A stretch of 64,000 nt of DNA. It comes from an uncultured Deferribacteres bacterium. GTDB taxonomy: Bacteria; Zhuqueibacterota; JdFR-76; BMS3Abin05. The stretch lies in NCBI GenBank assembly GCA_964568545.1, contig CAZMRE010000001.1, forward strand, positions 134-64,133, given 5' to 3'. Below the pieces are notes generated by a model, which worked only from the letters and a program-made list of their open reading frames with translations, had not been told where the DNA came from and did not search any database. Position numbers and translations under genes: made by a program. Positions 9,279 to 42,353 of this stretch are shown here, one piece after another (positions within the stretch are counted from its first letter, which is position 1; the number at the start of each line of letters is the position of its first letter).

Positions 9279-9292
9279 CACCACAATCTCCA

Positions 9293-11315: not shown

Positions 11316-11400
<85 letters not shown>

Positions 11401-11505: not shown

Positions 11506-11577
11506 TATTTTTTCCATTCAATAAAGAGACTCACCAAAGGCGGAAATTGTGTGGAATTTTCGTTAGGATTGATTTTT

Positions 11578-11964: not shown

Positions 11965-11978
11965 TTTTTCCTCAATTC

Positions 11979-12467
11979 TTACACAGACATCTGTTCCAGG
12001 TTAATATTGACCAGATCCACAACCAACTGGCGGATCGAGTCCAAATGATTCAATTGATACAATGTGAATCTGCTGGTTTTATCCAGTGGTAATCCTCCGC
12101 GATAGGCACGAATGGCAATTTGTGACGTTGAATTTTCGTCAACATTTGAGGCGATTATAATTGGGATTTCGAAATTCTCCTGAAAATATTCCGTAATTTC
12201 TTCAGCGGTTTGAACCGTTTCCGGGCGTTCCCAATCAAACAAAACAATGATGCCAAGAGCCTTAGTTGCCAGAAGTTCCCATGCGTAACTCTTGGCAAAC
12301 CGGCTCCAATGAATGCCGTAAAATTGCAAGAGCATTTCATCATCAAGAGAAAGCCACCCCGCTTGAATTCCTTTTTCCTGAAGCTCCACGCGGTCGCAGA
12401 GCTCTTGCAAAAGGGTTTCTTTTTTTACACTTTTGGGTCCAACTATTAAGATTTCTCCAACTCGCAT
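11979..12467 (-). CDS. Small Ras/MglA-like GTPase-fold protein with degenerate nucleotide-binding motifs
   Basis: 162 aa. Its layout parallels the C-terminal domain of the 13733-15322 protein: beta1 plus a P-loop position reading ILIVGPKSVKKET instead of GxxxxGK[ST], then LGIIVLFD, then IIIASNVDE at the NKxD position. Confidence 0.5.
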   Translation of the reverse strand: MRVGEILIVGPKSVKKETLLQELCDRVELQEKGIQAGWLSLDDEMLLQFYGIHWSRFAKSYAWELLATKALGIIVLFDWERPETVQTAEEITEYFQENFEIPIIIASNVDENSTSQIAIRAYRGGLPLDKTSRFTLYQLNHLDSIRQLVVDLVNINLEQMSV

Positions 12468-12533
12468 AAACGGATCCTCTGCCTTAGCCCAAATTTTTTT
12501 CTGCTGTTCAATCGGCTTGACGCAGCGTTTTTT

Positions 12534-27370: not shown

Positions 27371-27415
27371 ATTTGGGAAAATGCATCTCCTTTAATTTAT
27401 TCATCATCTTTAAAA

Positions 27416-27444
27416 ATAATACAATAAATTTTCACGATTTGCAA
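27416..27444 (-). promoter_or_regulatory. Sigma-70-type promoter of the phoH-pgpH-ybeY-corC operon
   Basis: The minus strand reads TTGCAA - 17 nt - TATTAT. An AAAGGAG ribosome-binding site lies further downstream, 10 nt before the ATG. Confidence 0.55.
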
Positions 27445-27542
27445 GATTTATTTTGTGGCAATCGGCAACGCGTTCTTGTGCTTTTCACATTGGCTTTACA
27501 TTCTTTCAGGGCTGAAAATTCTCTAAAAAGGCACTAAATAGC

Positions 27543-27574
27543 AAAAACCCGTTCCAAAAGTTGAAACGGGTTTT
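27543..27574 (-). terminator. Rho-independent terminator after the LysM gene
   Basis: The minus strand reads AACCCGTT-TCAACTTTTGG-AACGGGTT followed by TTTTGCTATTT. Confidence 0.7.
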
Positions 27575-27602
27575 GCACATTCACCTTGATTTTGGAAGAG
27601 GG

Positions 27603-28448
27603 CTATTTTTTTGGAATAACCAGAACCTCGTACGGATAAATCAAGTTTTTGTTTTTGATAATGGATTTGTTCGCTTCATAAATCTTGGTCCATTGTGTAG
27701 GATCGCCCAACGCAGCGCCGGCAATTTTCTTCAAATAATCGCCTTTAGTGACCACGTATTCATTGGGGCCGGTTTTACGAACAATTTTCAAATTCCAATC
27801 AGGGTAAATCAAATCGGGATTTTTGATCATTTCGCGATTGTAAGTGTAAATTTTCATCCACTGGTAGGGATCGCCGTAAATATCCGGTTTTTTGGAAATC
27901 TTCCACAAATAGTCACCACGGACCACTGTGTAGGTATCGTAGATCGATTTGGGCAATTTGCTTTTCACCTGCATTAATTTGCCTTCGACGGAAGCAATCA
28001 AATCTTGCATTTCTGTCAGAATAGCAATTTTGCTTTTTTTCGCTTCATCCAGTTTCTTTGCGATTTCATCGATCTCTGCCCGTTTTTGGAACAACTCTTC
28101 CGACGAAAGAGAGCTTAGCCCATCCAACTGGCTTTCCAGATCCTTTAGCGACTGACGATACGCATCGACGCTATTCTTGTCAGTACCCAAAAGCGCGTAA
28201 ATTTCTTCCCAGGTTTTGTCAATTTCGTTTTGGGTCGTCTGGATTTCGCCCTTCAATCCATCAATGTCCTTCTGCAAGGTAGCAATTTGTGCCTTAGCAT
28301 CGGCTTCGGTTTTTTGCCATTTTGCCAATTCTACTTTATAATCGTCCAATTTCATTTTAACTTTTTCCTGGGCGTAACTAAAGTTGGCCATAGCACCGAG
28401 CACAACAATTGCAACCATAGCTGCTGCAAATATCCGGTTAAGTTTCAT
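27603..28448 (-). CDS. Secreted coiled-coil protein with two C-terminal LysM peptidoglycan-binding domains
   Basis: 281 aa. It has a signal peptide ending ANFSYA|QE and about 150 aa of heptad-like sequence. The two LysM repeats are YTVVRGDYLWKISKK...IYPDWNLKI and YVVTKGDYLKKIAG...IYPYEVLVIP. Confidence 0.8.
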   Translation of the reverse strand: MKLNRIFAAAMVAIVVLGAMANFSYAQEKVKMKLDDYKVELAKWQKTEADAKAQIATLQKDIDGLKGEIQTTQNEIDKTWEEIYALLGTDKNSVDAYRQSLKDLESQLDGLSSLSSEELFQKRAEIDEIAKKLDEAKKSKIAILTEMQDLIASVEGKLMQVKSKLPKSIYDTYTVVRGDYLWKISKKPDIYGDPYQWMKIYTYNREMIKNPDLIYPDWNLKIVRKTGPNEYVVTKGDYLKKIAGAALGDPTQWTKIYEANKSIIKNKNLIYPYEVLVIPKK

Positions 28449-28486
28449 AAAATCTCATCACCTCCTGATCACATTTATTCAGTGCA

Positions 28487-28762
28487 TTATTCGGATTTAC
28501 TCAAACGTTCTTTCACAACCTCTTTTTCTTGTTTTACCTTTTGCAACTCGGCCTTTTTTGAATCCAACTTTTTCTGAAGTTGGGCTTTCTCAGTCTGCAA
28601 ATCCGACACCTTTTGCTGGGCACTTTTTGCAGCTTGTTTGGTTTCCTGAAGCGTCTTTAGCTGCTCATCATTTGCATAACGTGTACAGCCCGTCATAGCA
28701 ATTGACGCCACAAATAACCCGGCCATGACCAACAAAGCAAATTTTCTAAACCATTTGGACAT
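28487..28762 (-). CDS. Small coiled-coil lipoprotein (Lpp-like architecture)
   Basis: 91 aa, counted from the ATG that has the AAAGGAGGTG ribosome-binding site. It has a signal peptide with a lipobox-like IAMTGC, then a continuous Lys/Glu/Gln-rich helix. Confidence 0.65.
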   Translation of the reverse strand: MSKWFRKFALLVMAGLFVASIAMTGCTRYANDEQLKTLQETKQAAKSAQQKVSDLQTEKAQLQKKLDSKKAELQKVKQEKEVVKERLSKSE

Positions 28763-28817
28763 CGGGACAACACCTCCTTTTTCTTTTATTATACATAGAT
28801 AACGGAATGTTAAATCA

Positions 28818-28846
28818 ATATTAACAAAAAAAACAACAATTGTCAA
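28818..28846 (-). promoter_or_regulatory. Sigma-70-type promoter of the lipoprotein-LysM pair
   Basis: The minus strand reads TTGACA - 17 nt - TAATAT, with the -35 at 28841-28846 and the -10 at 28818-28823. Confidence 0.6.
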
Positions 28847-28906
28847 GGGAAAAATTCATTTCAGCAAAAAATAACATAATTTTATGCAAAATCCTTTTTG
28901 CGAAAA

Positions 28907-30733
28907 TTACGGCTTACCCATTGGGTCTGGCTCATTTTCCCTTTCCATAATTTGAATTCCCAATTCTTCCAGTTGCGGGGGATCAACGTCCGAAGGTGCC
29001 CCGTCCATCAAAGAAATGGCACTCGCTGTTTTCGGAAAGGGAATAACGTCCCGAATGGATTTTTCACCCGCTAGAATCATAACCAGACGATCGAAGCCAA
29101 AGGCGATGCCGCCATGCGGCGGAGCCCCATATTCAAATGCATGCAGCAAAAAGCCGAATTTCTTTTCTGCTTCTTCCGGGGAAATACCCAGCAATTTAAA
29201 CATTTTCATTTGGATATCTTTTCGGTGAATACGAATACTTCCACCTGCAATTTCATTGCCGTCCAGAACCAGATCGTAGGCGCGTGCCCGAATTTTTTCC
29301 GGTTCCTTTTCCATGGATTCAAAATCTTCTTCCTTGGGTGAGGTAAACGGATGATGCATCGCCACATACCGTCCCTGTTCCTCATCAAATTCCAGCAGCG
29401 GGAAATCGACCACCCAGAGAAGCCTGTGAATGGACGTGTCGATGAGATTTAATTTCCGGCCCAGATGCAGGCGCAGGGCACCCAGTGAGCGATACAAGGT
29501 TTCATTCTGATCGGCAATCAAAAGAATCAAATCCCCCGGAGCAGCCTCAAATTTTTCAATCAATTTTATCTGTATTTCCGACGACAAGAATTTGGAGGCA
29601 GAGCCCTTCAGCGTGCCCGATTCCACTTTTAAAGGCAAGGCACCCTTCGCTCCAAATTGCGTCACAAACTCATTCAATTCATCCAGTTGAGAGCGGGAAA
29701 AAGAAGCACCGCCCGGAACAGCAATTCCGGCAATATTTCCGCCAGCGGCAATTACCGAAGAAAAAACCTTAAAATCCGTCGCGGACAGTAAATCCGTTAC
29801 GGTTTGAATTTCCATTCCAAAACGCAGGTCGGGTTTATCCACACCAAAGCGCCGAATGGCCTCATCGTAGGACAATCGCAAAATGGGGTATTTCAGGGCT
29901 TCGCCCAGCACTTCTTGAAAGATTCTTTTCATCAAGCCCTCAACCACCATGAAAATATCGTCTTCCTGAACAAACGACATCTCCACATCAATCTGAGTAA
30001 ATTCGGGCTGACGGTCAGCCCGCAAGTCTTCATCCCGAAAACAGCGCACTATTTGAAAATAGCGGTCGAAACCCGCTACCATTAAAATCTGCTTGTAGGT
30101 TTGGGGAGATTGGGGCAAGGCATAGAATTTCCCTTTGTGGAGTCTGCTGGGCACCAGAAAATCGCGTGCGCCTTCCGGGGTGCTCTTCATCAAATAGGGC
30201 GTTTCGATTTCAACAAAATTATTTTCATCGAAATAGCGACGAACAATTTGTGAGACCTTGTGCCGAAGCAGGATATTTTTCTGCATATCCGGCCGCCGCA
30301 AATCCAGATAACGATATTTGAGCCGCAGTTCCTCAGAAACATCCACATCGGCAATTATTTGGAAGGGAGGCGTTTTGGCCGCATTGAGTATTTTAAGCTC
30401 ATTGGCACGTATTTCAATTTCGCCAGTGACCAATTTTTGATTCAGGGATTCCTCGGGGCGATTTGCCACAAGTCCCCGAACGGCAATAACAAATTCAGGA
30501 CGCAGCTCCTTCGCTTTTTCATAGACTTTTTGGTTGGTTTTTGGATTGAAAACAATCTGAGATTTGCCGTAACGATCCCGAATGTCAATAAAAATCAACC
30601 CGCCATGATCCCGTCTGCGATCTACCCATCCCATTAAGGTAACCGTTTTATCCACATGCCTTGTGCGAAGTTCACCGCAGGTGTGCGTGCGCTTCCATCC
30701 TTCCAATTTTTCAGACGTCAACCGATCCTCCAA
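28907..30733 (-). CDS. aspS: Aspartate--tRNA ligase
   Basis: 608 aa. It has an OB-fold N-terminus (GWVDRRRDHGGLIFIDIRD), class-II motifs (FRDEDLRADRQPEFTQ, GGIAFGFDR) and the bacterial insertion domain. The start is ambiguous: TTG at 30733, or TTG at 30721, which has GGAGGA 4 nt upstream. Confidence 0.92.
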   Translation of the reverse strand: MEDRLTSEKLEGWKRTHTCGELRTRHVDKTVTLMGWVDRRRDHGGLIFIDIRDRYGKSQIVFNPKTNQKVYEKAKELRPEFVIAVRGLVANRPEESLNQKLVTGEIEIRANELKILNAAKTPPFQIIADVDVSEELRLKYRYLDLRRPDMQKNILLRHKVSQIVRRYFDENNFVEIETPYLMKSTPEGARDFLVPSRLHKGKFYALPQSPQTYKQILMVAGFDRYFQIVRCFRDEDLRADRQPEFTQIDVEMSFVQEDDIFMVVEGLMKRIFQEVLGEALKYPILRLSYDEAIRRFGVDKPDLRFGMEIQTVTDLLSATDFKVFSSVIAAGGNIAGIAVPGGASFSRSQLDELNEFVTQFGAKGALPLKVESGTLKGSASKFLSSEIQIKLIEKFEAAPGDLILLIADQNETLYRSLGALRLHLGRKLNLIDTSIHRLLWVVDFPLLEFDEEQGRYVAMHHPFTSPKEEDFESMEKEPEKIRARAYDLVLDGNEIAGGSIRIHRKDIQMKMFKLLGISPEEAEKKFGFLLHAFEYGAPPHGGIAFGFDRLVMILAGEKSIRDVIPFPKTASAISLMDGAPSDVDPPQLEELGIQIMERENEPDPMGKP

Positions 30734-31131: not shown

Positions 31132-31158
31132 AAAAAAGCCCCGAATTTAATCCGGGGC
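31132..31158 (-). terminator. Rho-independent terminator ending the TPR-TolQ/ExbBD-TonB-like operon
   Basis: The minus strand reads GCCCCG-GATTAAATT-CGGGGC followed by TTTTTTGTTT. It starts 27 nt after the stop at 31185. Confidence 0.75.
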
Positions 31159-31184
31159 CTGGTACGTAAAATTTGTTTAACCAA

Positions 31185-32315
31185 TTAATACCCGAAGATG
31201 TAATCCTGGCGGAATATGGCATCGCCCTTTGAGGGATCGACCGGGCCAAAATCACGCCAGCGTCGGATTTTACTGACAATACAGCGTTCCACACCCGAAT
31301 TGTTCAAAGTCGATTCAACCACAGAAACCTTTCCCACACTTCCGTCCGTGTGAATGACAAAGCGAACGGAGATTTTTCCCTTCAGATTTGGGTTGGTCCG
31401 AAGGGCACGCTGGTAGCAGTACTCAATAGCCGCTTTGTGAGAATTAATCACTGCCAGAACGCTTTGTGCGCTGCGGCCGCCAGATTTTCCGGCTTCAGCC
31501 TTGACATTTGCCGATTTAAATAGTTTCATCTTTGTTTTCTTTTGCACAGACGTCGTTTTTGCCTGTCCAAGGCCGGTTAGGATATCGCCAATAGCGGCAC
31601 CTGCTCCAGAAGCCCTTCCGCCACGAACGCGGCCACCCCCTCCTTTTCCAGCACCTTCCGGTGAACCGGATGTCTTAATTCCACCAATATTTGAGAGAAT
31701 TTTATCCAAATTTTTTCCGCTTGCCTGCCCCGCATCATTCCCTAAAACATCATTTACCGCTTCCCCCTGTGCGGCTTTCCCTGTGCCTGTTAGCAGACCC
31801 AATAAGCCCTTTTTGCTGACCTCCTGCGAAATCTGGCTGGTGCTTCTGGATCGCGCGGCGACACGCTCCTTTGCCGTTGCCAGTCCTTTTTGTCCCTTGC
31901 CATTAGAGGCCGCTCCGGATTTTGCCTCGGCAGGCGGTTGCTCTGCCACTTTCTTGGATTCTTCTTTTTTAGTTCCGACTCCTTCCTTTGCCGTCGTCGA
32001 GGCTTCCACGGCCAGAGCTTTCTTTTGCTTCTGATAAATAAAATTAGCGTAATGCTCCTGAATGCGACGGGCTGCATTTTCCGAGATCTGATAAGGGAGA
32101 TTCGAAAGGTAAATCATGATTATCGCATTAAGGAGAAATGTAGCCAGGAAAATTCCCCAAAAGCGCCGATCCAACTTTTGGAACGCATGTTTTTTGTACT
32201 GATCCGGATCGATATATAGGGTTGTTTTTTCCCTCGAGACTTTCTTTTTTTCTTCCACAACGGCTACATCGGTTCCATCCTCAAACGGGGAGAGCTTTTT
32301 ATTTTTATGTTTCAT
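31185..32315 (-). CDS. TonB-like energy-transducer homolog with an AgmX/PglI-type C-terminal domain
   Basis: 376 aa. It has one TM helix (FWGIFLATFLLNAIIMIYL) and a long Gly/Ala/Lys-rich linker. The C-terminal block is AAIEYCYQRALRTNPNLKGKISVRFVIHTDGSV...VERCIVSKIRRWRDF, with the paired Cys typical of the AgmX/PglI C-terminal family. Confidence 0.7.
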   Translation of the reverse strand: MKHKNKKLSPFEDGTDVAVVEEKKKVSREKTTLYIDPDQYKKHAFQKLDRRFWGIFLATFLLNAIIMIYLSNLPYQISENAARRIQEHYANFIYQKQKKALAVEASTTAKEGVGTKKEESKKVAEQPPAEAKSGAASNGKGQKGLATAKERVAARSRSTSQISQEVSKKGLLGLLTGTGKAAQGEAVNDVLGNDAGQASGKNLDKILSNIGGIKTSGSPEGAGKGGGGRVRGGRASGAGAAIGDILTGLGQAKTTSVQKKTKMKLFKSANVKAEAGKSGGRSAQSVLAVINSHKAAIEYCYQRALRTNPNLKGKISVRFVIHTDGSVGKVSVVESTLNNSGVERCIVSKIRRWRDFGPVDPSKGDAIFRQDYIFGY

Positions 32316-32352
32316 ATCCAGACTCGTTTTTTGATGTTAGTCGTCCAATTAA

Positions 32353-32847
32353 TTACCCCTGGTCTTGATAGACCAAAAGCCTCATGTTTGGATATTCTGA
32401 GCGTCCACATGTCGCCATAATTTTAACCAGCACCTTGTAGGGCAAATCCTTGTCGCCCTGGATAACAACCTTTCCAGTAAAAGGCGTCCCATATTGCTCC
32501 TCCGCTTTTTGGGCTTCCGAGGCATATTTCTCCAGCTCCCTTGCAAGCGGTGGAATTACCAAGCTCTTCTCCGAGAGCACGTCTGCAATTTTAGCCACCG
32601 GTTTATCATTCAGCACAACCCATTCCTTGGAGACTTTCAGATCGAGAGCCACCTCGGCATGTTTGTGAACCGAAGAATTTGGCAGCGTTAGGTCATTGGA
32701 AGGTTGAATCATTTGCCCCTCGCTGGAGTAAACCTTCAGTAAGAAAACCAGAATGATGGTGAACATATCCATCATGGATGTCAAATTCAATTTTACTTGA
32801 CCGCTACCTGTGCCGTGCCTCTTTATTCGAGAAGGGATAAAGGCCAT
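32353..32847 (-). CDS. exbD: ExbD/TolR-family protein (paralog 2, retains the TM Asp)
   Basis: 164 aa. Its N-terminus LNLTSMMDMFTIILVFLL carries the conserved membrane Asp, followed by a periplasmic ExbD domain. Confidence 0.8.
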   Translation of the reverse strand: MAFIPSRIKRHGTGSGQVKLNLTSMMDMFTIILVFLLKVYSSEGQMIQPSNDLTLPNSSVHKHAEVALDLKVSKEWVVLNDKPVAKIADVLSEKSLVIPPLARELEKYASEAQKAEEQYGTPFTGKVVIQGDKDLPYKVLVKIMATCGRSEYPNMRLLVYQDQG

Positions 32848-32867
32848 TTGTAACTCCGTTCTTTGAT

Positions 32868-33407
32868 TTAAAGTACTGTTGCTCCTAACGAAACATCCGG
32901 AAACAGCGGTTTCAATTTTCCATCTACTTTGACACTTCTGGAGGCATCCATTGTACTAACTACTGTTTGATATTTAATAGATGGCTCCGCCAAAATGATG
33001 ATCCGATTCGAATCCCTAAAAATACCATCTGCCTTCTTCTTGATTCGGTATAAATAATCAGATAGCTTTTTATAATCGTAACCATCCGCTTCTTTTGGAA
33101 TGGTTGGCCCCTCACCATTTTGGCCCAATGCCACTGCAGCGCTGCTTGCAATGTAAAATCCCTGATCCGTGACGGTAACCGTCAGATCGAGCTTTTTTTC
33201 CGTCTCCTGAGGCATTTTCGAGACGGAGGTCATGGTTGCGCCGGCTGCCGGAGGCAGATTAATTTCAATAATTCCCAGTTTTATAAACTCCGCCGAGGTC
33301 AAAAGTAATGGAATGAGAACAACCATCAGATTCATAATGGGGGTCAAATTCAATTCCGGTTCAACCGCATCCGGACGTCTTTTGCGTTTAGATGGTTTGA
33401 AAGCCAT
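32868..33407 (-). CDS. exbD: ExbD/TolR-family protein (paralog 1, Asn at the TM Asp position)
   Basis: 179 aa. It reads LNLTPIMNLMVVLIPLLL, with Asn where the proton-relay Asp normally sits. The start overlaps the upstream stop by 1 nt. Confidence 0.75.
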   Translation of the reverse strand: MAFKPSKRKRRPDAVEPELNLTPIMNLMVVLIPLLLTSAEFIKLGIIEINLPPAAGATMTSVSKMPQETEKKLDLTVTVTDQGFYIASSAAVALGQNGEGPTIPKEADGYDYKKLSDYLYRIKKKADGIFRDSNRIIILAEPSIKYQTVVSTMDASRSVKVDGKLKPLFPDVSLGATVL

Positions 33408-34075
33408 TATTTGTTCCCTGTAATTAAATTAATCAGTTTTACCGTATGTTCATCAATTTCATCGATAATTCCCATGGTTTTATTGTGAATATACGTATAC
33501 ACTAATACGGCAGGGATTGCAATGGACAACCCAACCAATGTCGTGTTCATAGCTGTTGAAATACCCGCTGCCAATAGCCTGGACTTTTCGGCAGCATCCA
33601 CACCTGGGGCTGAAATCGAGTTAAATGCCATGATCAGACCGTAAATCGTTCCCATCAGGCCCAGCAGAGTGGCTACATTTCCAAGCGTGGCTAACCAGCC
33701 GGTTCGCTCTTGTAATTTGGGAATAATCTCCAGAGTTCCCTCATCAACGGCATTTTGAACCGTTCGGAAATCAACTTCTTCATCGTCATTATCAAGTACC
33801 CGAAGACCGGTTCCCACAACATAAGGAAGGGCTTTGTCCTTCATTTTTTCACAAACTTGAACCGCTTCTTTGTACTCTCCTTTGGAGACCAGACGACGGA
33901 TGTCTTTCATAAACTTATCCGCATTAATATTTGAGCGAATACCAATGAAATACGAACGCTCAACTGCCAGGGCTACGACAAACACGGCTGTAACCAATAG
34001 CAACCACATAAAAAGCCATCCGGGGGCTCCGATCTTAAATGCATGGAATATTTGGACGAATTCTCCCATGTTCAT
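33407..34075 (-). CDS. MotA/TolQ/ExbB proton-channel protein
   Basis: 222 aa. It has three TM helices and the conserved C-terminal core TLGNVATLLGLMGTIYGLI...AGISTAMNTTLVGLSIAIP. Confidence 0.88.
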   Translation of the reverse strand: MNMGEFVQIFHAFKIGAPGWLFMWLLLVTAVFVVALAVERSYFIGIRSNINADKFMKDIRRLVSKGEYKEAVQVCEKMKDKALPYVVGTGLRVLDNDDEEVDFRTVQNAVDEGTLEIIPKLQERTGWLATLGNVATLLGLMGTIYGLIMAFNSISAPGVDAAEKSRLLAAGISTAMNTTLVGLSIAIPAVLVYTYIHNKTMGIIDEIDEHTVKLINLITGNK

Positions 34076-34105
34076 ACCTCCTGTTTCATTTTTTTGGGAA
34101 TGATG

Positions 34106-34453
34106 TTATTTTCGCTCTTTTCGCAACATTTCCCGTGCCTCTGCCACCTGTTTGCTTCTCGATTTTTTCATCTCCATATAAAGAAGTTCTCGGGGCACGT
34201 TTTTAATTTCTTTGCTAAAAGAACGGCGGATGAATTCTACTTCTTTTAACTTGGGCTCAATTCGCTTAGGAACAATGGAAACACTCGGCTTCTCAATATG
34301 TGCTTCTACGTGAAGTGCTTTAAGAACCAATTCTTTGGATGTTTTCGGCGCCACCGGTTTCTTTTTAGATGACACGTCCTGGGCGTCCACATTCCGATTC
34401 AAGAGAAACACACTTAGAATTGCTGCCATACCTACCACAACCGAATATCTCAT
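34106..34453 (-). CDS. Small secreted basic protein of unknown function
   Basis: 115 aa. It has a signal peptide ending NVDA|QD. It lies between the TPR genes and tolQ/exbB, with short gaps to both neighbours. Confidence 0.55.
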   Translation of the reverse strand: MRYSVVVGMAAILSVFLLNRNVDAQDVSSKKKPVAPKTSKELVLKALHVEAHIEKPSVSIVPKRIEPKLKEVEFIRRSFSKEIKNVPRELLYMEMKKSRSKQVAEAREMLRKERK

Positions 34454-34467
34454 CTTTGTATCCTCTG

Positions 34468-37400
34468 CTAGGGCTTAAGCACACGATTCAAAAGAAAGGC
34501 CTGTTTTTCAATTTCCTTTTCGAGATTGATCTCTTCCCGCTTTACCGATTCACTCACTTTCTGAATGGTCGCTTTTCGCAAGAGTTGAATTTGAAAGATC
34601 GCTCGCATGCCTTTCCGAGTACTGTCTGTGTCTGTCACGTGAATAGCTACGACATTCTTTCCTTGCCGGATGAACTCATTGACATTCACAGGGAAAACTT
34701 GCTTCCACCCTAATGTATCGGCTTTTTCCTGAAAAACCTTTACGCCGTTTATAAAAATTTCCATATTGTCATCAGCTTGAATTTTAAGTTTGGAAGACAC
34801 CGGAATATCACTGATATCAAACGCTTTTTTGAAATACAATTCCGCCGGATAAGCTTCGTGGGCGGCAAGATGGAAGGCTCTTGGAGCAGCCTTTTGCGAG
34901 GAATCCACCGCAACCGTGTCAGCAAACACTGTATCCATTTTCATTGGAATATTCATGCTGTAGGCCATCTTCCCTGGGAACAGAGCTTTTCCCGCAGAAT
35001 CCCACGCCATTTTCTGTGCGTGCATCCAGGAGGAATCTGGAGGGGTGTTCTGGATCCAGTTGGAATCAACCTTCGTGCTGACCAGCCATGAGGTGTCAGC
35101 AGGCACGTACACGGAATCGGTAGACACCGCAAATTCCTTGGCGTACGTGACAGGATCTAATTCAATTAGGAGACTGGACAAATTGCTAACCGCCAGGCTT
35201 TGCAAATTATGGGATTTTTTATAATCGTACGCATCCGCAGCAATTTCAAGAGCGGCGTCGTGCAAAGAATTAAAATTATCGGAATAGGTGTAGATGGCGT
35301 CTTCGTACTCAGGCATTGGCTCCTTTTGATTCAGCGCAGAAAAATAATCCTTCAATGCCCGCGCAGAATCCGCTTCAATTTTGTAAGTGTCGGCGATTTG
35401 GTAGGTGTTTTCCAGATAATCATTCATTCCCTGTTCGGCATATTTATCCGGGAAATTGTGTTTGAGAAAATTATCCAACTCCCACTGGTAAAATCGTGTC
35501 ATGATTTGCGTGTATTTCTTTCCCAAATCAATTACATTTAACAAATCTCCAGCCAAATTGAGGGCGCCCTCTTTTTCACTGTCAGAGCCTTTTGTCATTA
35601 TTTTATAATAGCGGTGTTTCATTTTCCGGTACGTGTCGATTGTTCCCATGGCCAGCTCGTAATATTTTGCGGGAAGAATTTTAAATACCTGCAGCAGCTT
35701 TTTCCGCGAACGCGCAACCCATCTATTTTCCAGTTCAAGCGAATCGGCTTCATTGATATTACGAAGATGAGCCTGAACAATTTTATCCACCGTTGGCTTA
35801 ACGGCCTTTAGATACACCTGATTTTTGTACTCCAATATAGCCACGGGATCGAGGCCATCAGGAATGGGTGCCGACAAAATCTGTTCGATGGACGCAAAAT
35901 TGAGATCCGCAATGCGGTACAGCATTTCGGATGTCTTTTCACCCGAACGTGTGACCCATCGTTTCATCACCCGCAATGTGCTGTCCTTTTCTGCCACTCG
36001 AATAGAATGCCTGTGGATAGAATCGCCAGACGTTGTGTCCGAAAGGGCCGTTGAATCTGAAGCGGTCGGTGCGGCAGCATTCTCAAGCTTTCTCAACAGA
36101 ATAACAGCCGAGCGGTAGGAAGCGTGAGCTTTTTCATACAATTGCGCAGACATTTGATGGATTTTTGTCCGGTACACAATCTGTCGTGTTTTGTCCATTT
36201 GAGGGATTTCCTGAGAGTTCCAAGTATTGGCAAATTCCTCGTAAACCTTGCCAATGTCATACGTGGCTTCGTACAACCGAATGGTACCATACGCCGCCAC
36301 CTGTTCATACTGAGAGACCAGTTGTTTCAACAGCTCTTTCTTCTGCTTTTTCTGGGCATCCATATTTGCCAGCGTGAATCGGATTTTTTTGTAATCATTG
36401 TACATTAATTCCGATTTCAGGAAAAGAGCCTCTGCCGCGTAGAAATCATTTGTTTTAAGATTTTTGGATTTCAATTCTGTGTTCCGCTGCAACGCCCGAT
36501 TGAATTCCACAATGGCCTGGTCATGTTCCCCCTTATTCATAAAATATTCGCCGCGTTTGTAAAATGTTTCCACGCCTCGGGGCGAATCCGGGTACTTCAT
36601 CCCGAATTCATCCCAAATTCTGTTTGCCTGATCCAGATCATCTAACTTCAAATAGTACTCAGCCATGTTGTAAAACATATTTTCCGCATCGGAAGATTTT
36701 GGGTACGTTTCCACGTACTGCTTGTTAATCCGAATCGCATTTCGCCAGTCCTTTGCCTTGACCGAGAAAAAACTGGCATTGTACAGTGCATCCTGCGCTT
36801 TTGCCGAATCCGGCGTAACCTTCCAGAGTTTCTCATAAGTATTGGCTGCGTATTTGTACTCTTTCAATTCACCATAATCCAGTGCCAGGTTGTTCATGGC
36901 ATCCAGGTAGTATTTGGATGAAGGAAAATGATCAATCAAATATTGGTAGGCTTCCACCGCCTGATTGTATTCCGAAACCTTATCGTACTCCACCGCCGAT
37001 TGGTAGAGCGACAAATCAGCAAATTTGGCGTTCGGAACCTCTTTAACAACCCTCCGGTATTCCTTTGCCGCTGCCAGATGATTCCCGCTATCCGCCAATG
37101 CCTGGGCATGCATAAAAATCGATTCAGACATGCGTCTGACCGCTTTCTTTTTTACAGCTTCAGGAACATTCTTGCTCAATTGAATTTTTTTCGCCATCAA
37201 TTCGGCGCTCACAAAATCCTGCTTTCCAAAATAGCTTTCCATTGCCGTGAATTGAGCCTGAGTAAGCTCCGGACTATCCGGAAAACGCTGAATAAGCGTG
37301 TTAAAATACGTCAGAGCTTCCTCAAAGTGCTTTTTATTGTAGAACAAAATTCCGGCATTAGCCAATGCTACCGAAGCATCTTTGTCCTGCGGAAACAGTT

Positions 37401-39144
37401 TAATGAAATTATCGTAGGCTTCAATGAGGCGTTTCTCATCAGCATTCAGCGTATCAGGCTTCACCGGCTTAAGACCGACCGCATTCTTTTGACGAGCAGC
37501 CATTTTCTGAAAATCGCTAATTTTACTGGTGTCGCTGCCAGCCGTTTTCAATGGTTGAGCATGGTGTTTTTTCAAAATTTCATTGGCAACTGCAATGGCA
37601 TTTTGAGCGGCATCCTTTCGATACTTGTCCTTTGTATAATCAAAGGCAATCTTTTCATATTCCCTAAAAGCCTCATCATCCCGATTTAATTTGGTGTCCA
37701 AAACGAGGGCCATGTTCCAGTGAATCGTGTAAGCCAGCGAATCATCAGGAAAGTATTTCAGATAAATGCGGCTGTTTTTTACCGCCTGTTGATAATAGTC
37801 CAGGGAAGAATCCTTCTCCGCATCCGTGAGAAGTCGATTAATATTTTCTTGCATAGTTTTCTTCACCAGTTCGGTTGCTTCCCGAATGGCTTTTCTTCGG
37901 AGGAGAGGATTGGGAATTTTTTTCTGCATCGCCTTAGACCATTTGCTTCCGGGATGAAATTTCAGAAACATTTCCCGCTGGGCTTGATACACGCCGTTAG
38001 TATCTTCCAAGCGCTTAAATGACTTAACGATTTCATTCTGGATTTGCGGCGCCTCCGGTGCATCCGGATAATAATGCAGGATGGCGTTATACGTCGCGAT
38101 GGCTCTCAGAAACTTTTCTTCATCAACTTCGTAAACGTCTCCCAATTTTTTTAAAATATGAACACCGTAATCGGGATAGTTTAAATCAGCTAAATATTTC
38201 AGCGCCTCGTCAAGGCCGCCGTAATCGTGGAAACAAATGCCAATGTAATCCAGCGATTCATCTTCAAGAGAGGGGTTGGAATAGGTGCCGTTGTAGTCAA
38301 CGGGTTTTGTCTTCTCAATATCTTGCACGGCTGCCGTAAAGGATGCAATTGCTGAGGGGAAATCTCCCTTTAAATAGTTGGCCCAGCCAATCTTGTACAA
38401 CGCCTCATCGTAGCGCGGCGTGTCTTTGTATCTTAGAACCAATTTATAGTATTTAATGGCTTCGTCGTAGTTTTTTACAGAGGGACTGAAATAATATTCC
38501 CCGATCTGCATAAGGGCTTCGGGAGCATATTTGCTTTTGGGATATTTTGAAGCAATTTCGCGATAATAACCTACAGCATCCACAAACTTCCCTTGTTTGC
38601 CCAAGATGTAGGCCAAATTATAGAGGGCATCGTCGTACAAACTGCTGTTCGGAAAATTATCTACAATAAGGCGATATTTTTCCAGTGCCTTGGAATAATC
38701 AATTTTAGGTTCCTCAGGGGGATTGGGACGCAAGCCCTTTTCATAGTCAGAATAAGCCTTATCATACGCATCCATTTTCTTGAGAAAGGTTTCATCCGCC
38801 TGCTGAAAATAAAACTCGCCCAAACGCAAAAGAATTTTGTCGACAAAATGACTGTTAGGATTTTCGGTTAGCAGTTTTTCCACATTCTGGATATTCTTCT
38901 CACGAAGCAATTTTTTTTCGCGCTGCAAGCGATTAATTTCGTTTTTGTAGTATTCACGAAACTTGATCAGATCCTCAGCCGAAAATGTTTTAACCAGGGA
39001 ATCCAACAGCGTTTGATGAGATGATTTCTCCCCTTTTTCAATTAGCGTTTCCTGAGCAAAACTATTTTTGCCCAAAAATATAATTAGGGCCATACTCAAA
39101 AACACGATGGCCTTTCTCCATCCCTGGAATCTACGATTTTCCAT
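34468..39144 (-). CDS. Giant secreted TPR-repeat protein (about 1558 aa) with a C-terminal beta-sandwich-like domain
   Basis: The start is set at MENRRFQGWRKAIVFLSMALIIFLGKNSFA|QE (signal peptide). The longer ORF start would overlap the upstream gene by 149 nt. There are dozens of A/Y/L-patterned 34-residue repeats (e.g. YDDALYNLAYILGKQGKFVDAVGYYREI). The last 150 or so residues (KIQADDNMEIFINGVKVF...NVVAIHVTD) resemble a galactose-binding-like fold. Confidence 0.75.
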   Translation of the reverse strand: MENRRFQGWRKAIVFLSMALIIFLGKNSFAQETLIEKGEKSSHQTLLDSLVKTFSAEDLIKFREYYKNEINRLQREKKLLREKNIQNVEKLLTENPNSHFVDKILLRLGEFYFQQADETFLKKMDAYDKAYSDYEKGLRPNPPEEPKIDYSKALEKYRLIVDNFPNSSLYDDALYNLAYILGKQGKFVDAVGYYREIASKYPKSKYAPEALMQIGEYYFSPSVKNYDEAIKYYKLVLRYKDTPRYDEALYKIGWANYLKGDFPSAIASFTAAVQDIEKTKPVDYNGTYSNPSLEDESLDYIGICFHDYGGLDEALKYLADLNYPDYGVHILKKLGDVYEVDEEKFLRAIATYNAILHYYPDAPEAPQIQNEIVKSFKRLEDTNGVYQAQREMFLKFHPGSKWSKAMQKKIPNPLLRRKAIREATELVKKTMQENINRLLTDAEKDSSLDYYQQAVKNSRIYLKYFPDDSLAYTIHWNMALVLDTKLNRDDEAFREYEKIAFDYTKDKYRKDAAQNAIAVANEILKKHHAQPLKTAGSDTSKISDFQKMAARQKNAVGLKPVKPDTLNADEKRLIEAYDNFIKLFPQDKDASVALANAGILFYNKKHFEEALTYFNTLIQRFPDSPELTQAQFTAMESYFGKQDFVSAELMAKKIQLSKNVPEAVKKKAVRRMSESIFMHAQALADSGNHLAAAKEYRRVVKEVPNAKFADLSLYQSAVEYDKVSEYNQAVEAYQYLIDHFPSSKYYLDAMNNLALDYGELKEYKYAANTYEKLWKVTPDSAKAQDALYNASFFSVKAKDWRNAIRINKQYVETYPKSSDAENMFYNMAEYYLKLDDLDQANRIWDEFGMKYPDSPRGVETFYKRGEYFMNKGEHDQAIVEFNRALQRNTELKSKNLKTNDFYAAEALFLKSELMYNDYKKIRFTLANMDAQKKQKKELLKQLVSQYEQVAAYGTIRLYEATYDIGKVYEEFANTWNSQEIPQMDKTRQIVYRTKIHQMSAQLYEKAHASYRSAVILLRKLENAAAPTASDSTALSDTTSGDSIHRHSIRVAEKDSTLRVMKRWVTRSGEKTSEMLYRIADLNFASIEQILSAPIPDGLDPVAILEYKNQVYLKAVKPTVDKIVQAHLRNINEADSLELENRWVARSRKKLLQVFKILPAKYYELAMGTIDTYRKMKHRYYKIMTKGSDSEKEGALNLAGDLLNVIDLGKKYTQIMTRFYQWELDNFLKHNFPDKYAEQGMNDYLENTYQIADTYKIEADSARALKDYFSALNQKEPMPEYEDAIYTYSDNFNSLHDAALEIAADAYDYKKSHNLQSLAVSNLSSLLIELDPVTYAKEFAVSTDSVYVPADTSWLVSTKVDSNWIQNTPPDSSWMHAQKMAWDSAGKALFPGKMAYSMNIPMKMDTVFADTVAVDSSQKAAPRAFHLAAHEAYPAELYFKKAFDISDIPVSSKLKIQADDNMEIFINGVKVFQEKADTLGWKQVFPVNVNEFIRQGKNVVAIHVTDTDSTRKGMRAIFQIQLLRKATIQKVSESVKREEINLEKEIEKQAFLLNRVLKP

Positions 39145-39181
39145 ACAATGACTCTCGTTTAAAATGCTGTCGCCTAAGGTT

Positions 39182-42100
39182 TTATTTTTTATGTTTTTCT
39201 TTTTTGTCCTTTTCCTGCAATCGGTTTTGCTTTTCCGGATATTTCTTTTCCAGAAGTTCCTGCACACCCTGATCCTGAGTCTTGTACTTAGCCTCCTGCC
39301 GGACGACGTTTTCACGATTTTTGGAAACAAAGTATTTCTGATTAAAATATATGTCCATCGCCTTTCGATGGTCTTCCATTTGTTTTTGCTTCAGGCGCCG
39401 CTGCACCTGGCGAAGGCTATCGTTCATGGTGTAAATATGATCCTTCAACGCTAATTGCTGAACATTCAGGGCATTGTTAATTAAGCTGATATAATCGTAA
39501 TAATTTTTAATTTTTAGATCAATATTCTGAAGCCGAACAAAATCGATGTCGCTGACACCAAAGCCGCTGAAATCAGCATAATATTGAACATTTTCTTCCG
39601 GCGAATCATCCAATTCTCCGTTCAAATAAACAACATATTCCTCCAGGCGATCGGAAATATTCTCCAAATTTTCACCGTTAAAATCCAATCGAACAATAGA
39701 TCTTACATCTCCCTGTTTTCGCGCTTCAGCAACCAGTTTTTCAACATCTTTTTGGTCGTTCTGGACCTGTTTTAATTGGGATTGAATTTCTGCCAGCATT
39801 TCGGAAAGAACCTGCCGCTTATACCTGACCATACTCTGCCGTTGAAGAAATGGATAACTTGCTAGGAAGTCCGTTTCGCTGCTCCATTTGCCGGGGGTAT
39901 AACTGCCTAAAATCGCCAATAATCGATTTTTTGTTTTGCCGATGTTCTTCGTCAAATCCTCGTAGCCCAATTTCCGAACAATCTTTTGGTAGGTTTCCAG
40001 ATCGCTCACCAGATTCTCCAAGCGCTGCCGCTCCAGCTCAAATTCATCCATCATGTAAAGACCAGGTTTGCCGGACGGATATGTATTTTCCATAATCCTC
40101 TTGACCTTTTGTTTCAGGTACACCACTTCCTGAAACCGAAGCCTATCCCCCCGTTTCAAGGCATCTTCCTGAATCTTGTCCAATTCCTGAAGGCGTCCGG
40201 CCAGCGCTTTTCGTTCTTTGTTTTTTCCGGTCAGGATGGCGAGAGCTCTTTTTGCATTTTCCACATAACGCAAATCGCGCGCCGCACGGATGGGTTTTCC
40301 CATCATATTATAGCAATGGGCAGAAAGCGTTTTGGCTTCGTAGACGTAGTTCGAGCTCATGAAATTCCAGAATAACCGATCCAGATCCTCAACCGTATAT
40401 TTGATTTGCCCCTCACGGAATTCTGCCCATGCTTTTCCAATCAGTGCATCCTGATAGGCGTTATTGCCTGCAGAAACCCTGTTAAAATACTTCAATGCTA
40501 ATTTTGGTTCGTTATTTTCATAATAAATCATTCCAAGCTTCAATAACGAATTATTTTTAATGAGATTAGCCCTTGAATCAGACGATTGTTTTTGTGCCTC
40601 CGCTACCAATTTTCTAAAGATTTTCGCCGCCGACCGATACCGCTGTTCACCGGCATACGCACTTGCCAACAAAAATTGAGCAGACATTGCGTAGTCCGAT
40701 TTCTCCGGGATGGTTCGAAGCGTGGAAATGGCCTGATCGTAGTTTTCCTTTTTAAAATAAACATAGCCCGTCAAATAATGAGCCTTTTCGTAAACCTCAT
40801 CTTTCGGAATTTTTTGAAATCGGGCTTCCAGTTTTTTGTAGGCATCAAAATATTGATCGTCCTGGTGCAGCGCCTCGGTAATTAATAAAATTTTGAAATA
40901 CGAATCGCTTACATATTTTGAATGGGGAAACTGCCGGATTACGTAGGCAAAGGTTCGTTTGGCTTTTTCATATTTGCCCTGAGCCATATAAATTTCAGCG
41001 AGATGGTAGTGGATATCTTCCATATCGTGGAAGGGATATTCCCTAAGAAGCTCCCTAAATTCCAATTCGGCCAGCGGGTATTCCCCTCGATTGTAGCTCA
41101 CAATGGCATCAGCCAAATCCCGGCGAAACATTCGGTTTAACTGTGCTAGATTAGAATCGTGGATCAACCGTTGCCGCAGCAAACGCACGCGTGTCAACTT
41201 GATTTTATAATTGAAGATCTGCGTCGCCTTCCACTCTTCCAGAAATTCGTCGAATTTGGATTCATTTGAGAGAAGGGCAAAATTCGTATATCCTAGTACC
41301 CGAAGTAATTTCCGATCCACATTCGCCAGAACGTCTTCTTTAAGGGCATCGATTTTAAACAGAATGTCCTCATCATCCGGGCTAATCTGGGATCGAAAAT
41401 GATCCAACTGATACAGAACACTGATAATATTTTCCATTTCCCGATAATATTGAGCTTCCAGCGTGTTGTCCGAACGCGACATATGGCTGCTGAGAAGCTG
41501 CTCCAGATGGGATTTTTCCTGCTTAATTTCAGAAAGGGCCGCCTGATTATTTTCCGCCCGGGCAAGCGCCTGGTAATGATCGAGTTCGCCATAAATCGTG
41601 AGAATTTGTTTAATTTCACTCCGATAGTTGGAAATTAATGTGTTGGACAATTGGTCTTTTTTTGAGAAGGGTACGCGGGTCTTTCCCTCAATGGCCCGTT
41701 TTAATTCGTCTTTGATGGCCGCCGCCCGGGCACGAATTGACACATCATTTTTCTGATCCGCCTCCCGCTCCAACTGCTTTAATTGATCCATTAATCCCAG
41801 AGCACGGCGAATTTCCTGGGAATACGCCTGAATCAGTGAATCTGAACCGGCAGCCGCATCGTGCGTAACAATCGCGTCAAAAATCCCTGAAACAGGCTGT
41901 TTTTCCTTTTTTCGCTCCTTCAGCTCTTCAACCAGATTATCCATCAATCTGGTTAAAAACTGCTCTTTGTAAACCATGTCGTAATAAAAATCACTGGTCT
42001 TTTCGTCAATCATTTGCCAAACATGGGCTTCGAATTGCTTTTCAAGGCGGGTTTTTTCTGGAGCCATCGAAAGGCTGGTTCCTCCAAGAAGAAGAATCAC

Positions 42101-42199
42101 AAAAAGGAATGCAGCTCTATTTGCAAGATGTTGAACACGAGATTTCCAAATATCAGGCGATGTCGTACCATGCTTCTTTGAAATCATTGAATGCACCAT
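39182..42199 (-). CDS. Large coiled-coil plus TPR-repeat protein (1005 aa) with an N-terminal membrane anchor or signal
   Basis: It has an N-terminal hydrophobic segment AAFLFVILLLGGTSL and long heptad regions. The central TPR repeats include YHLAEIYMAQGKYEKAKRTFAYVIRQFP and YLTGYVYFKKENYDQAISTL. The C-terminus is Lys-rich. Confidence 0.7.
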   Translation of the reverse strand: MVHSMISKKHGTTSPDIWKSRVQHLANRAAFLFVILLLGGTSLSMAPEKTRLEKQFEAHVWQMIDEKTSDFYYDMVYKEQFLTRLMDNLVEELKERKKEKQPVSGIFDAIVTHDAAAGSDSLIQAYSQEIRRALGLMDQLKQLEREADQKNDVSIRARAAAIKDELKRAIEGKTRVPFSKKDQLSNTLISNYRSEIKQILTIYGELDHYQALARAENNQAALSEIKQEKSHLEQLLSSHMSRSDNTLEAQYYREMENIISVLYQLDHFRSQISPDDEDILFKIDALKEDVLANVDRKLLRVLGYTNFALLSNESKFDEFLEEWKATQIFNYKIKLTRVRLLRQRLIHDSNLAQLNRMFRRDLADAIVSYNRGEYPLAELEFRELLREYPFHDMEDIHYHLAEIYMAQGKYEKAKRTFAYVIRQFPHSKYVSDSYFKILLITEALHQDDQYFDAYKKLEARFQKIPKDEVYEKAHYLTGYVYFKKENYDQAISTLRTIPEKSDYAMSAQFLLASAYAGEQRYRSAAKIFRKLVAEAQKQSSDSRANLIKNNSLLKLGMIYYENNEPKLALKYFNRVSAGNNAYQDALIGKAWAEFREGQIKYTVEDLDRLFWNFMSSNYVYEAKTLSAHCYNMMGKPIRAARDLRYVENAKRALAILTGKNKERKALAGRLQELDKIQEDALKRGDRLRFQEVVYLKQKVKRIMENTYPSGKPGLYMMDEFELERQRLENLVSDLETYQKIVRKLGYEDLTKNIGKTKNRLLAILGSYTPGKWSSETDFLASYPFLQRQSMVRYKRQVLSEMLAEIQSQLKQVQNDQKDVEKLVAEARKQGDVRSIVRLDFNGENLENISDRLEEYVVYLNGELDDSPEENVQYYADFSGFGVSDIDFVRLQNIDLKIKNYYDYISLINNALNVQQLALKDHIYTMNDSLRQVQRRLKQKQMEDHRKAMDIYFNQKYFVSKNRENVVRQEAKYKTQDQGVQELLEKKYPEKQNRLQEKDKKEKHKK

Positions 42200-42314
42200 T
42201 CTTTAGAGTTTTAGGGATCACTATTTTTTTCGGCTCTTTTTTAAAATAATCAATAGATTTTCCTAAAGATTTTCTTTTAACGAATCCATTTTGGAATAAA
42301 AAAGTATCTGATTA

Positions 42315-42353
42315 CAAAAAAGCCGATAAACTCATATATGATTATCGGCTTTT
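42315..42353 (-). terminator. Rho-independent terminator after atpC
   Basis: The minus strand reads AAGCCGATAA-TCATATATGAGT-TTATCGGCTT followed by TTTTTGT. A-tracts and T-tracts flank both sides, so it could work in both directions. Confidence 0.75.

Follow-up and report, generated by a model that had tools for sequence, protein, structure and literature searches.

The 64,000-nucleotide window analysed here (positions 134 to 64,133 of contig CAZMRE010000001.1, assembly GCA_964568545.1, from an uncultured bacterium of the Zhuqueibacterota) carries a seven-gene operon, A1 to A7 (cluster A), that is very probably the form taken in Calditrichota/KSB1 by the Agl-Glt core complex, a trans-envelope machine that runs on proton motive force (PMF), akin to the Ton and the Tol-Pal systems yet distinct from both. 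In both gene content and gene order, the operon appears to correspond to the core complex described by Luciano et al., an identity that went unrecognised in an earlier, sequence-only reading of the window. The system is of an already published kind, here as a phylum-wide variant marked by a stator with a single Asp, a GltD that ends in a lectin-like domain, a GltF-like adaptor and the absence of GltE.

The core complex consists of gltC, gltD, gltE, gltG, aglR, aglQ and aglS plus one extra gene. It is clustered in some Gamma- and Betaproteobacteria, Geobacter and Fibrobacter, where its function is unexplained (Luciano et al. 2011, PMC3169522), and it is regarded as ancestral to the Myxococcus machines for gliding (Agl-Glt) and for the spore coat (Agl-Nfs) (PMC3169522). 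The Fibrobacter and proteobacterial clusters were compared through the published table (PMC3169522 Table S3). In Fibrobacter succinogenes, Fisuc_1892-1897 comprises GltC (746 amino acids, aa), GltD (1292 aa), AglR (212 aa), the unlisted 1895, AglS (Fisuc_1896, 164 aa) and GltG (308 aa), and in Methylibium petroleiphilum, Mpe_A1224-1231 comprises GltC (634 aa), GltD (941 aa), GltE (243 aa), one unlisted gene, AglR (217 aa), AglQ (170 aa), AglS (163 aa) and GltG (371 aa). Myxobacterial references came from the complete genome of Archangium gephyra, reached stepwise from A2 homologues. This genome has a G1 cluster (GltD of 1224 aa, GltE, GltF and GltG of 640 aa), an Nfs-like cluster, a G5-type cluster and two ExbB-ExbD-ExbD triplets, namely AglR (246 aa)/AglQ (161 aa)/AglS and an M2 paralogue, and its gene sizes agree with the Stigmatella entries of Table S3. 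The features of the operon, in transcription order, are:

42315..42353, minus strand: upstream intrinsic terminator, after atpC; hairpin with U-tract, -16.1 kcal/mol, z -4.26, 0 of 200 shuffles folding equally well
39182..42199, minus strand: A1, secreted tetratricopeptide repeat (TPR) protein in the GltC position, 1005 aa
34468..39144, minus strand: A2, secreted protein assigned as a GltD homologue, 1558 aa
34579..35121, minus strand: C-terminal beta-sandwich of A2, a galactose-binding-like jelly roll predicted with AlphaFold2 (AF2) and Foldseek
34106..34453, minus strand: A3, small secreted protein, probable GltF homologue, 115 aa
33407..34075, minus strand: A4, MotA/TolQ/ExbB-family channel subunit assigned to the AglR clade, 222 aa, three transmembrane (TM) segments
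32868..33407, minus strand: A5, ExbD/TolR paralogue assigned to the AglQ type, with Asn26, 179 aa, PF02472
32353..32847, minus strand: A6, ExbD/TolR paralogue assigned to the AglS type, with Asp27, 164 aa, PF02472
31185..32315, minus strand: A7, GltG-type transducer, 376 aa, NF033768 C-terminal domain
31188-31520, minus strand: C-terminal AgmX/PglI domain of A7, residues ~266-376, with the fold of TonB C-terminal domains
31136..31160, minus strand: downstream intrinsic terminator; 11-bp stem with 6 G-C pairs and a U-tract, -16.5 kcal/mol, z -2.97

The seven genes lie head to tail on the minus strand from 42199 to 31185, and their spacing in the open reading frame (ORF) analysis ranges from overlap up to 37 nt. 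The sequence-only reading had described seven co-directional genes between two terminators, and this description stands: all the ORFs are present and both hairpins, each with a U-tract, fold well. What it said of the individual genes is borne out as well, wherever it could be checked. Pfam TPR families match the first two genes, A4 matches the MotA/TolQ/ExbB channel family (PF01618, 84 bits), and A5 and A6 match PF02472 as the two ExbD paralogues, with Asn in one and Asp in the other by direct reading (IMNLMVV in A5, MMDMFTI in A6). The longest ORF for A2 begins with a TTG at 39330 and overlaps A1; the real start is the ATG at 39144, which opens a typical signal peptide, MENRRFQGWRKAIVFLSMALIIFLGKNSFAQE (MENRRF...NSFAQE), and gives the roughly 1558-aa secreted protein that had been predicted. 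The beta-sandwich proposed for its C-terminus is found in an AF2 model, and the lack of a TonB-dependent receptor gene extends to the whole 66.5-kb contig (C1).

The operon is flanked upstream by the atp operon (atpC) and downstream by aspS, then a LysM protein and PhoH. A comparison of gene order across the phylum used 20 fetched loci spread over the phylum and found the seven genes in the same order in 20 of 20, usually with atpC upstream and aspS downstream. This gene order is far from chance. In the window, positions 26336-30733 hold aspS (608 aa) and the genes for a double-LysM protein with coiled coil (281 aa) and for PhoH (344 aa). This order beside the operon is kept in most of the sampled genomes, and the synteny block therefore extends beyond the operon.

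A4 is a channel protein that falls in the AglR clade. A maximum-likelihood (ML) tree of 28 proteins included A4, six orthologues from the phylum, the counterpart from candidate division LCP-89, B4 from a second, paralogous cluster of the same genome (cluster B, below), Archangium proteins, E. coli TolQ and ExbB, and other paralogues from the same genomes. A4 grouped with its orthologues, LCP-89, B4, Archangium AglR and the M2 paralogue (support 98/92), and E. coli TolQ and ExbB and all other paralogues of these genomes fell outside this clade. Among the nine Archangium MotA/ExbB genes, only AglR and the M2 paralogue are strongly similar to A4/B4 (2e-42 and 3e-37), the rest reaching 1e-21 or weaker.

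A5 and A6 each have one N-terminal TM segment and a TolR-like periplasmic domain, and are assigned by similarity to the AglQ and AglS types, respectively. Among the query proteins, the best match of the Archangium M2 AglQ-type protein is A5 (36% identity, 5e-28) and that of the M2 AglS-type protein is A6 (33% identity, 4e-24). The corresponding cluster B subunits, B5 and B6, follow the same pairing, with shared, type-specific insertions, and strong matches to A5/B5 and A6/B6 come only from the two Archangium clusters with two ExbD genes.

At the proton-relay site A5 has Asn26 and A6 has Asp27. In orthologous loci the AglQ-type subunit has Asn in 62 of 65 and the AglS-type subunit has Asp in 65 of 65, and the same division holds in cluster B and in LCP-89. 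In Archangium all four plug subunits (AglQ, AglS and both M2 paralogues) carry Asp, as do the M. xanthus plug subunits according to the literature. Since the Asn is conserved here while all four Archangium subunits keep Asp, the single-Asp stator is best read as a conserved, derived state of these lineages, and it appears to be the clearest mechanistic departure from AglRQS. A search of the literature for AglQ D28N in combination with AglS gave no result. In one sublineage, three loci carry Asp in place of Asn in the AglQ-type subunit (NLNPLLDVVTVLIPLLL), which may be either a reversion or a retained ancestral state.

The cytoplasmic N-terminus of A7 is short and is followed by one TM segment (52-70), a linker of ~200 aa and, at the C-terminus, the AgmX/PglI domain. 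Gly, Ala and Lys abound in the linker, and Pro does not rank among its eight most frequent residues. The C-terminal domain scores 92.1 bits against NF033768 (AgmX/PglI C-terminal domain; cut-off 40), but lies below the cut-offs of Pfam TonB_C PF03544 (18.2 vs 24.6) and TIGR01352 (23.1 vs 27.1). It is 34% identical to the C-terminal domain of Archangium G1 GltG (4e-16) and has a weak, sub-threshold GltJ match (24 bits vs a cut-off of 450). Against the GltG model NF033760, A7 scores 97.7 bits and does not reach the cut-off of 650, and it is therefore called GltG-type and not GltG itself.

The sequence-only reading had assigned this domain to the AgmX/PglI type in place of classical TonB. The assignment is correct for the sequence subfamily and does not extend to the fold. 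In the AF2 model of the last 140 residues, the predicted local distance difference test score (pLDDT) is above 90 over residues 40-140, and the best Foldseek matches are the TonB C-terminal domains 6sly (H. pylori), 7zc8 (FusB), 6fip (P. aeruginosa) and 2gsk_B (E. coli TonB-BtuB), with a probability of 1.0 and target TM-scores of 0.55-0.63. The predicted domain superposes on these solved structures, so the AgmX/PglI type is a TonB-fold subfamily and not another fold. Of the outcome that the sequence-only reading had named as refuting it, a standard TonB fold with ordinary Ton-box interaction, the fold half thus holds. Published GltG and GltJ models match the same TonB entries (Cambillau & Mignot 2025, PMC11761067).

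The TonB fold and the sub-threshold TIGR01352 match of A7, together with at least 21 TBDT (TonB-dependent transporter) plug domains in the genome, would also suit an ordinary ExbB-ExbD-TonB system that powers TBDTs encoded elsewhere and carries the TPR genes as passengers. This explanation is essentially excluded. The motor belongs with the AglR clade, apart from a classical ExbB that lies with two TonB genes on contig C15. Contigs C1 and C13, which hold clusters A and B, carry no TBDT plug domain, and the rest of the genome has 21. Motor and TPR genes are inherited together in 20 of 20 genomes and in LCP-89, and Pfam TonB_C stays under its gathering threshold. TonB linkers are described as Pro-rich, but that of A7 is rich in Gly, Ala and Lys, with Pro outside the top eight. 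On the ML tree, the absence of a TBDT from the contig and the separate C15 cluster, an ordinary Ton system was rejected. The AglR-clade channel and the lack of a nearby TBDT thus uphold the initial suggestion that this is not a nutrient-uptake system.

The genome has six MotA/ExbB-family genes, located in clusters A and B, a flagellar MotAB locus, the C15 Ton cluster and two small clusters. The C15 cluster (5141-13667) encodes ExbB (207 aa), two ExbD proteins (133 and 170 aa), two TonB-like proteins (216 and 222 aa) and a 417-aa protein, with a 1023-aa secreted protein further along. It is a classical cluster of the Fibrobacterota-Chlorobiota-Bacteroidota (FCB) type and is probably the general Ton (or Tol-like) system serving the at least 21 TBDTs.

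A2 is, by its sequence matches, a GltD homologue. It consists of a TPR scaffold (~66-1019), a helical region and a C-terminal jelly roll. Residues 66-1019 are collinear with residues 85-1042 of the Archangium G5-type GltD paralogue (BLASTP 8e-74, 988 columns), and A2 matches the GltD of the Archangium G1 cluster (3e-42) and Myxococcota proteins sitting in Glt-like clusters (phmmer E ~1e-78 to 1e-80). The last 288 residues were modelled by AF2 with 44 homologues (pLDDT 86.6, predicted template modelling score 0.76) as helices flanking a jelly-roll sandwich. The best Protein Data Bank matches in Foldseek are beta-galactosidases and glucuronidases of glycoside hydrolase family 2 (GH2) and an alpha-L-rhamnosidase (E ~1e-6, probability 1.0), and weak NCBIfam rhamnosidase/jelly-roll matches agree. 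The part of GH2 that is matched is presumably the N-terminal sugar-binding domain, a reading based on a precomputed PF02837 match on one A2 homologue and on knowledge of GH2 architecture. Three Trp residues are invariant or nearly so across the 44 homologues. The jelly roll is absent from B2, the GltD-type protein of cluster B, and from the Archangium GltD-family proteins compared.

A sugar-binding fold of GH2 type with conserved Trp might indicate that the operon is a partner of polysaccharide export or of a surface polymer, in which the motor and scaffold pull or lay a glycan bound by the A2 jelly roll. A passage in one report (PMC3858216) describes Agl-Nfs as moving the Myxococcus spore-coat polysaccharide, and a Poly_export/SLBB gene lies ~2.5 kb downstream of the Archangium G5-type Glt cluster. 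This role is nonetheless unlikely: no polysaccharide synthesis or export gene occurs in or beside the operon or around the 20 orthologous loci, whose neighbours are atpC, aspS, the LysM protein and PhoH, and such jelly rolls also serve as plain protein-protein or peptidoglycan-binding modules.

In A1, a TPR core (~350-690) stands between a helical N-terminal extension of ~300 aa and a C-terminal third that is likewise helical, and A1 orthologues have signal peptides. The match of A1 to the GltC model NF033756 has an E-value of 2.5e-9, yet it reaches just 36 bits where the cut-off is 450. In hhalign, the A1 family aligns with the GltC-like family over residues 351-646 (99.4%, E 8e-22), compared with 3e-12 for a generic TPR control, the A2 family. 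Pairwise BLASTP to GltC-like proteins gives 3e-5, and nothing aligns outside the TPR region.

A3 is a probable, though not a proven, homologue of GltF. It has no Pfam or NCBIfam match, and its mature part contains a conserved core, LxxIxIEAxIEKPxVxIxPKR(x12)RSFxxELK, whose strand in this operon is IEKPSVSIVPKR. A3 is present in 20 of 20 loci and has 188 representatives in a library of 1.84 billion proteins. A hidden Markov model (HMM) of the core, run against 24,606 ORFs, finds the small gene of cluster B, B3 (2e-4), and the LCP-89 small protein (1e-5). Four Myxococcota proteins in the GltF/NfsF position share the motif IEGxLxKPxxxYVxxR...F..K(V/L)xxSV, and the A3 and GltF/NfsF families align end to end in hhalign (93.6%, E 2e-7, 44 of 48 columns). 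The alignment scores 33.9, compared with 9.0 ± 1.9 (maximum 17.2) for 100 column shuffles and 10.8 for the reversed alignment. In Myxococcota gltF stands between gltE and gltG; relative to the GltD- and GltG-type genes, A3 has the position of GltF, and in the core complexes of Luciano et al. it is at this place, between the glt genes and the agl genes, that one gene is unlisted. The A3 HMM gave non-significant scores against a Myxococcota 85-aa protein (E above 10, then 0.31).

The link between A3 and GltF matters because GltF was classed as specific to Myxococcales/Bdellovibrionales (Luciano et al. 2011, PMC3169522), and because it has been modelled as adding a beta-strand to the TonB-like domain of GltG and inserting a helix into GltC (Cambillau & Mignot 2025, PMC11761067). 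GltF has also been compared to a TonB box (PMC9389320).

Several points weigh against the identification with the Agl-Glt core complex. The GltC-type assignment of A1 is the less certain one, drawn from the TPR region and the gene position only. For A3, an HMM of the four GltF sequences finds it only at E = 8, and with the A3-core profile the Myxococcota GltF-type proteins are not among the best 150 of the 1.84 billion representatives. Single-profile searches thus fail to bridge the two families, and what supports the GltF link is the profile-profile score with its shuffle control, together with synteny. Cluster A has no gene for a GltE-type TPR lipoprotein (~240-480 aa) and no NF033758 match, and no outer-membrane component is encoded in the operon. 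The Asn of A5 could make this subunit a passive plug, or the motor could differ from AglRQS. The output of the machine and its substrate, discussed below, are guesses. As to GltE, it is not universal, none being given in Table S3 for the Fibrobacter cluster (PMC3169522).

Beyond the 20 loci, full-length A1 orthologues are present in roughly three quarters of the 151 same-phylum genomes searched, with one family (f14) and some genera giving weak TPR cross-matches to A1 only. A contig scan gave 80 loci, all of the same phylum by close similarity, and the NCBI names of the homologues are Calditrichaeota/Calditrichia, candidate division KSB1 and Zhuqueibacterota. The array, in the same order, recurs in candidate division LCP-89, where it encodes TPR proteins of 714 and 1561 aa, two small proteins, ExbB, two ExbD proteins and a 330-aa AgmX-domain protein, and its 714-aa protein is an A1 orthologue (3e-42). 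Cluster B, the paralogous Glt-core-like cluster of the genome studied here, lies on contig C13 (4314-12922 of the extracted locus) and contains:

Contig C13, start of the cluster: a 347-aa secreted protein without a family match, then TPR proteins of 207 and 224 aa
Contig C13, scaffold: B2, GltD-type TPR protein, 953 aa, 3e-78 to A2
Contig C13, small gene: B3, secreted, 113 aa
Contig C13, motor: B4, AglR-type, 210 aa; B5, ExbD with Asn, 154 aa; B6, ExbD with Asp, 169 aa
Contig C13, transducer: B7, AgmX-domain protein, 449 aa

B7 is the only AgmX-domain protein found in the genome besides A7. Its N-terminal cytoplasmic domain of ~145 aa aligns with the N-terminus of Myxococcota GltG-like proteins. 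An FHA domain was considered for this N-terminus and set aside, Pfam giving no confirmation (Yop-YscD_cpl E 0.23). A GltD-type protein of type A or B occurs in 81 of 81 sampled genomes of the phylum, type A in ~65, type B in ~61 and both in ~45.

The presence of a GltD-type cluster in all 81 genomes, and a housekeeping-type neighbourhood (atp operon and aspS) kept across the phylum, are consistent with a functional stand-in for Tol-Pal, which would use the PMF to hold the outer membrane to the peptidoglycan and to coordinate division constriction, with a CpoB-like TPR hub. Such a role is compatible with Glt-core ancestry, and is a possibility that we take seriously without favouring it. The TIGR02795 (CpoB/YbgF) model is above its cut-off of 90 on both A2 (123 bits) and B2 (156 bits), and A5 and A6 have TolR-like periplasmic domains. 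TolB_N (PF04052) was not detected in the organism's own genome, genus, family or order, and elsewhere in the phylum its matches are weak (22-36 bits) and confined to 33 of 81 genomes, so that a canonical Tol-Pal may be absent or highly divergent here. However, neither TolB nor Pal is encoded in the operon or next to it, many generic TPR repeats add up to the CpoB score, and the motor groups with AglR and not with E. coli TolQ. The C15 cluster with its 1023-aa protein could be the real Tol-like system, and Myxococcota Glt-like systems coexist with true Tol-Pal (Luciano et al. 2011, PMC3169522). Membership of Tol-Pal itself was rejected for want of TolB or Pal (there is no TolB_N match in the genome, and the neighbours are atpC and aspS).

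The sequence-only reading had also pointed to components of the myxobacterial gliding machinery. The kinship is sound, given the AglR clade, the AglQ and AglS types, GltD and the GltG/GltJ-type domain, but nothing points to gliding itself. A gliding engine like Myxococcus Agl-Glt, possibly regulated by the MglA-like/PATAN genes noted earlier in the same window, is very unlikely, for all the homology to AglRQS and GltC, D, F and G. Archangium Glt-like clusters do adjoin an MglB-like/MglA-like pair: in A. gephyra (CP102578.1, 3163648-3186920), Roadblock/MglB-like and Arf/MglA-like GTPase genes directly precede the G5-type cluster. The core complex is insufficient for motility, however; gliding also depends on gltA, B, H, K, I and J of Group A (Luciano et al. 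2011, PMC3169522), and the operon has none of them. At E <= 0.01 no operon protein matches a Group A model save the weak GltJ match, in a search confined to the operon, with models for most of the group not seen. The conservation between atp and aspS resembles that of housekeeping genes. The PATAN module lies over 16 kb from the operon. No evidence was found for the functional link that had been speculated with SprA or the PATAN/MglA-like genes, all at more than that distance, in an analysis that did not cover the synteny of the PATAN module with the operon in other genomes.

The genome also has flagellar genes (MotAB and hook). The flagellar cluster on contig C16 (101-10350) encodes MotA (256 aa), MotB (262 aa) and a 677-aa protein whose N-terminus resembles the flagellar hook protein, as judged by eye. 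The organism is probably a swimmer, which weakens the case for gliding.

Taken as an Agl-Glt core complex, the operon may work as follows. A4 would form a pentameric inner-membrane channel ring of AglR type, with the 5:2 stoichiometry of ExbBD, TolQR and MotAB structures, around an A5-A6 heterodimer, after the AlphaFold AglR5QS model (Cambillau & Mignot 2025, PMC11761067). Given the Asn/Asp pattern, the motor would then have one protonatable carboxylate and not two, and proton flow via Asp27 of A6 would drive a movement that is handed to A7. The TM helix of A7 would dock on the ring, as suggested by the AglR-GltG two-hybrid result (Luciano 2011, PMC3169522), and its Gly/Ala/Lys-rich linker of ~200 residues would cross the periplasm, carrying the TonB-fold domain.

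The C-terminal domain of A7 may bind its partners by beta-strand addition. The best candidate partner is the invariant strand of A3 (IEAxIEKPxVxIxPKR), a putative analogue of the TonB box in the light of the GltF-GltG model, and A7 may also contact the N-terminal part of A2, as in the published GltD-GltG model. A3 would bridge to A1. A2 and A1 would together form a long periplasmic TPR/helical scaffold, and the lectin-like jelly roll of A2 may grip a glycan, either peptidoglycan or an outer-membrane-linked polysaccharide. The most likely output would be a mechanical housekeeping task in the envelope, such as tethering, remodelling or moving an envelope polymer. This is suggested because the system is universal in the phylum, because its synteny with atp and aspS is conserved, because TolB_N is undetectable in the lineage and patchy in the phylum, and because no TBDT, polysaccharide-export or gliding-specific genes lie alongside.

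The core complex has been known since 2011, and its role outside the gliding and sporulating myxobacteria is still unexplained. The universal presence of the system in the phylum and the housekeeping neighbourhood of type A argue for a basic and not an accessory envelope role. A wider reading, which we regard as rather doubtful, is that in Calditrichota/KSB1 and related candidate phyla (LCP-89) the Glt-type core is an essential machine of a housekeeping kind that ties the PMF to the outer layers of the envelope and does the job of Tol-Pal, with an unusual heteromeric single-Asp stator, a glycan grip and an ancestral GltF-like adaptor. If true, this would supply an orphan core complex, unexplained for 15 years, with both a function and its minimal architecture. 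A small GltF-like adaptor was probably present in the ancestral module already. The conserved motor with one Asp per AglQ/AglS pair is a useful test case for models of 5:2 motors, and the Asp-bearing sublineage offers natural comparison partners for it, while the lectin-like domain on the GltD scaffold suggests a testable glycan partner. The classification is unchanged, and what is gained is incremental, though it gives a usable way into an open question.

Among known systems, the operon shares with Ton systems PF01618, PF02472 and the fold of TonB C-terminal domains, and the tandem ExbD pair is also seen in many Ton clusters of the FCB group. It differs in a motor clade apart from the C15 Ton cluster of the same genome, in having no TBDT nearby, and in being always coupled to giant TPR proteins. 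With Tol-Pal it has in common a proton motor of 5:2 type, a single-TM transducer with a TonB/TolA-like C-terminal domain and CpoB-like TPR repeats, and a similar housekeeping role in the envelope is possible. Unlike Tol-Pal, it has no TolB or Pal, its motor lies outside the TolQ clade, its transducer domain is of the AgmX/PglI subfamily, and its two TolR-like subunits are different from each other.

The likeness to Myxococcus xanthus Agl-Glt and Agl-Nfs extends to a homologous motor, a GltG-type transducer, GltD, a probable GltF and, less certainly, a GltC-like TPR protein. The operon differs from Agl-Glt in being without the GltA, B, H and K barrels, cytoplasmic GltI, GltJ and GltE, and A7 has none of the FHA domains that GltG carries in the cytoplasm. 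The Asp is retained by both plug subunits of Archangium but not by A5, and there is no evidence here for motility or sporulation, as known for Agl-Glt and Agl-Nfs.

The core complexes of Luciano et al. have the same families in the same order in a single operon, the GltC type of A1 being the less certain, with no TBDT associated. The Fibrobacter complex is also like the operon in having no GltE listed and in its AglS-type protein of 164 aa, the length of A6. In contrast to these complexes, A2 ends in a lectin-like jelly roll and is ~270-600 aa longer than the non-myxobacterial core-complex GltDs in Table S3 (941-1292 aa), and A1 carries ~300 aa of additional helical sequence at its N-terminus. 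Asn occupies the proton-relay site of the AglQ-type subunit, a difference established by comparison with Archangium. Throughout a whole phylum the cluster type is conserved here, and it comes in two paralogous forms.

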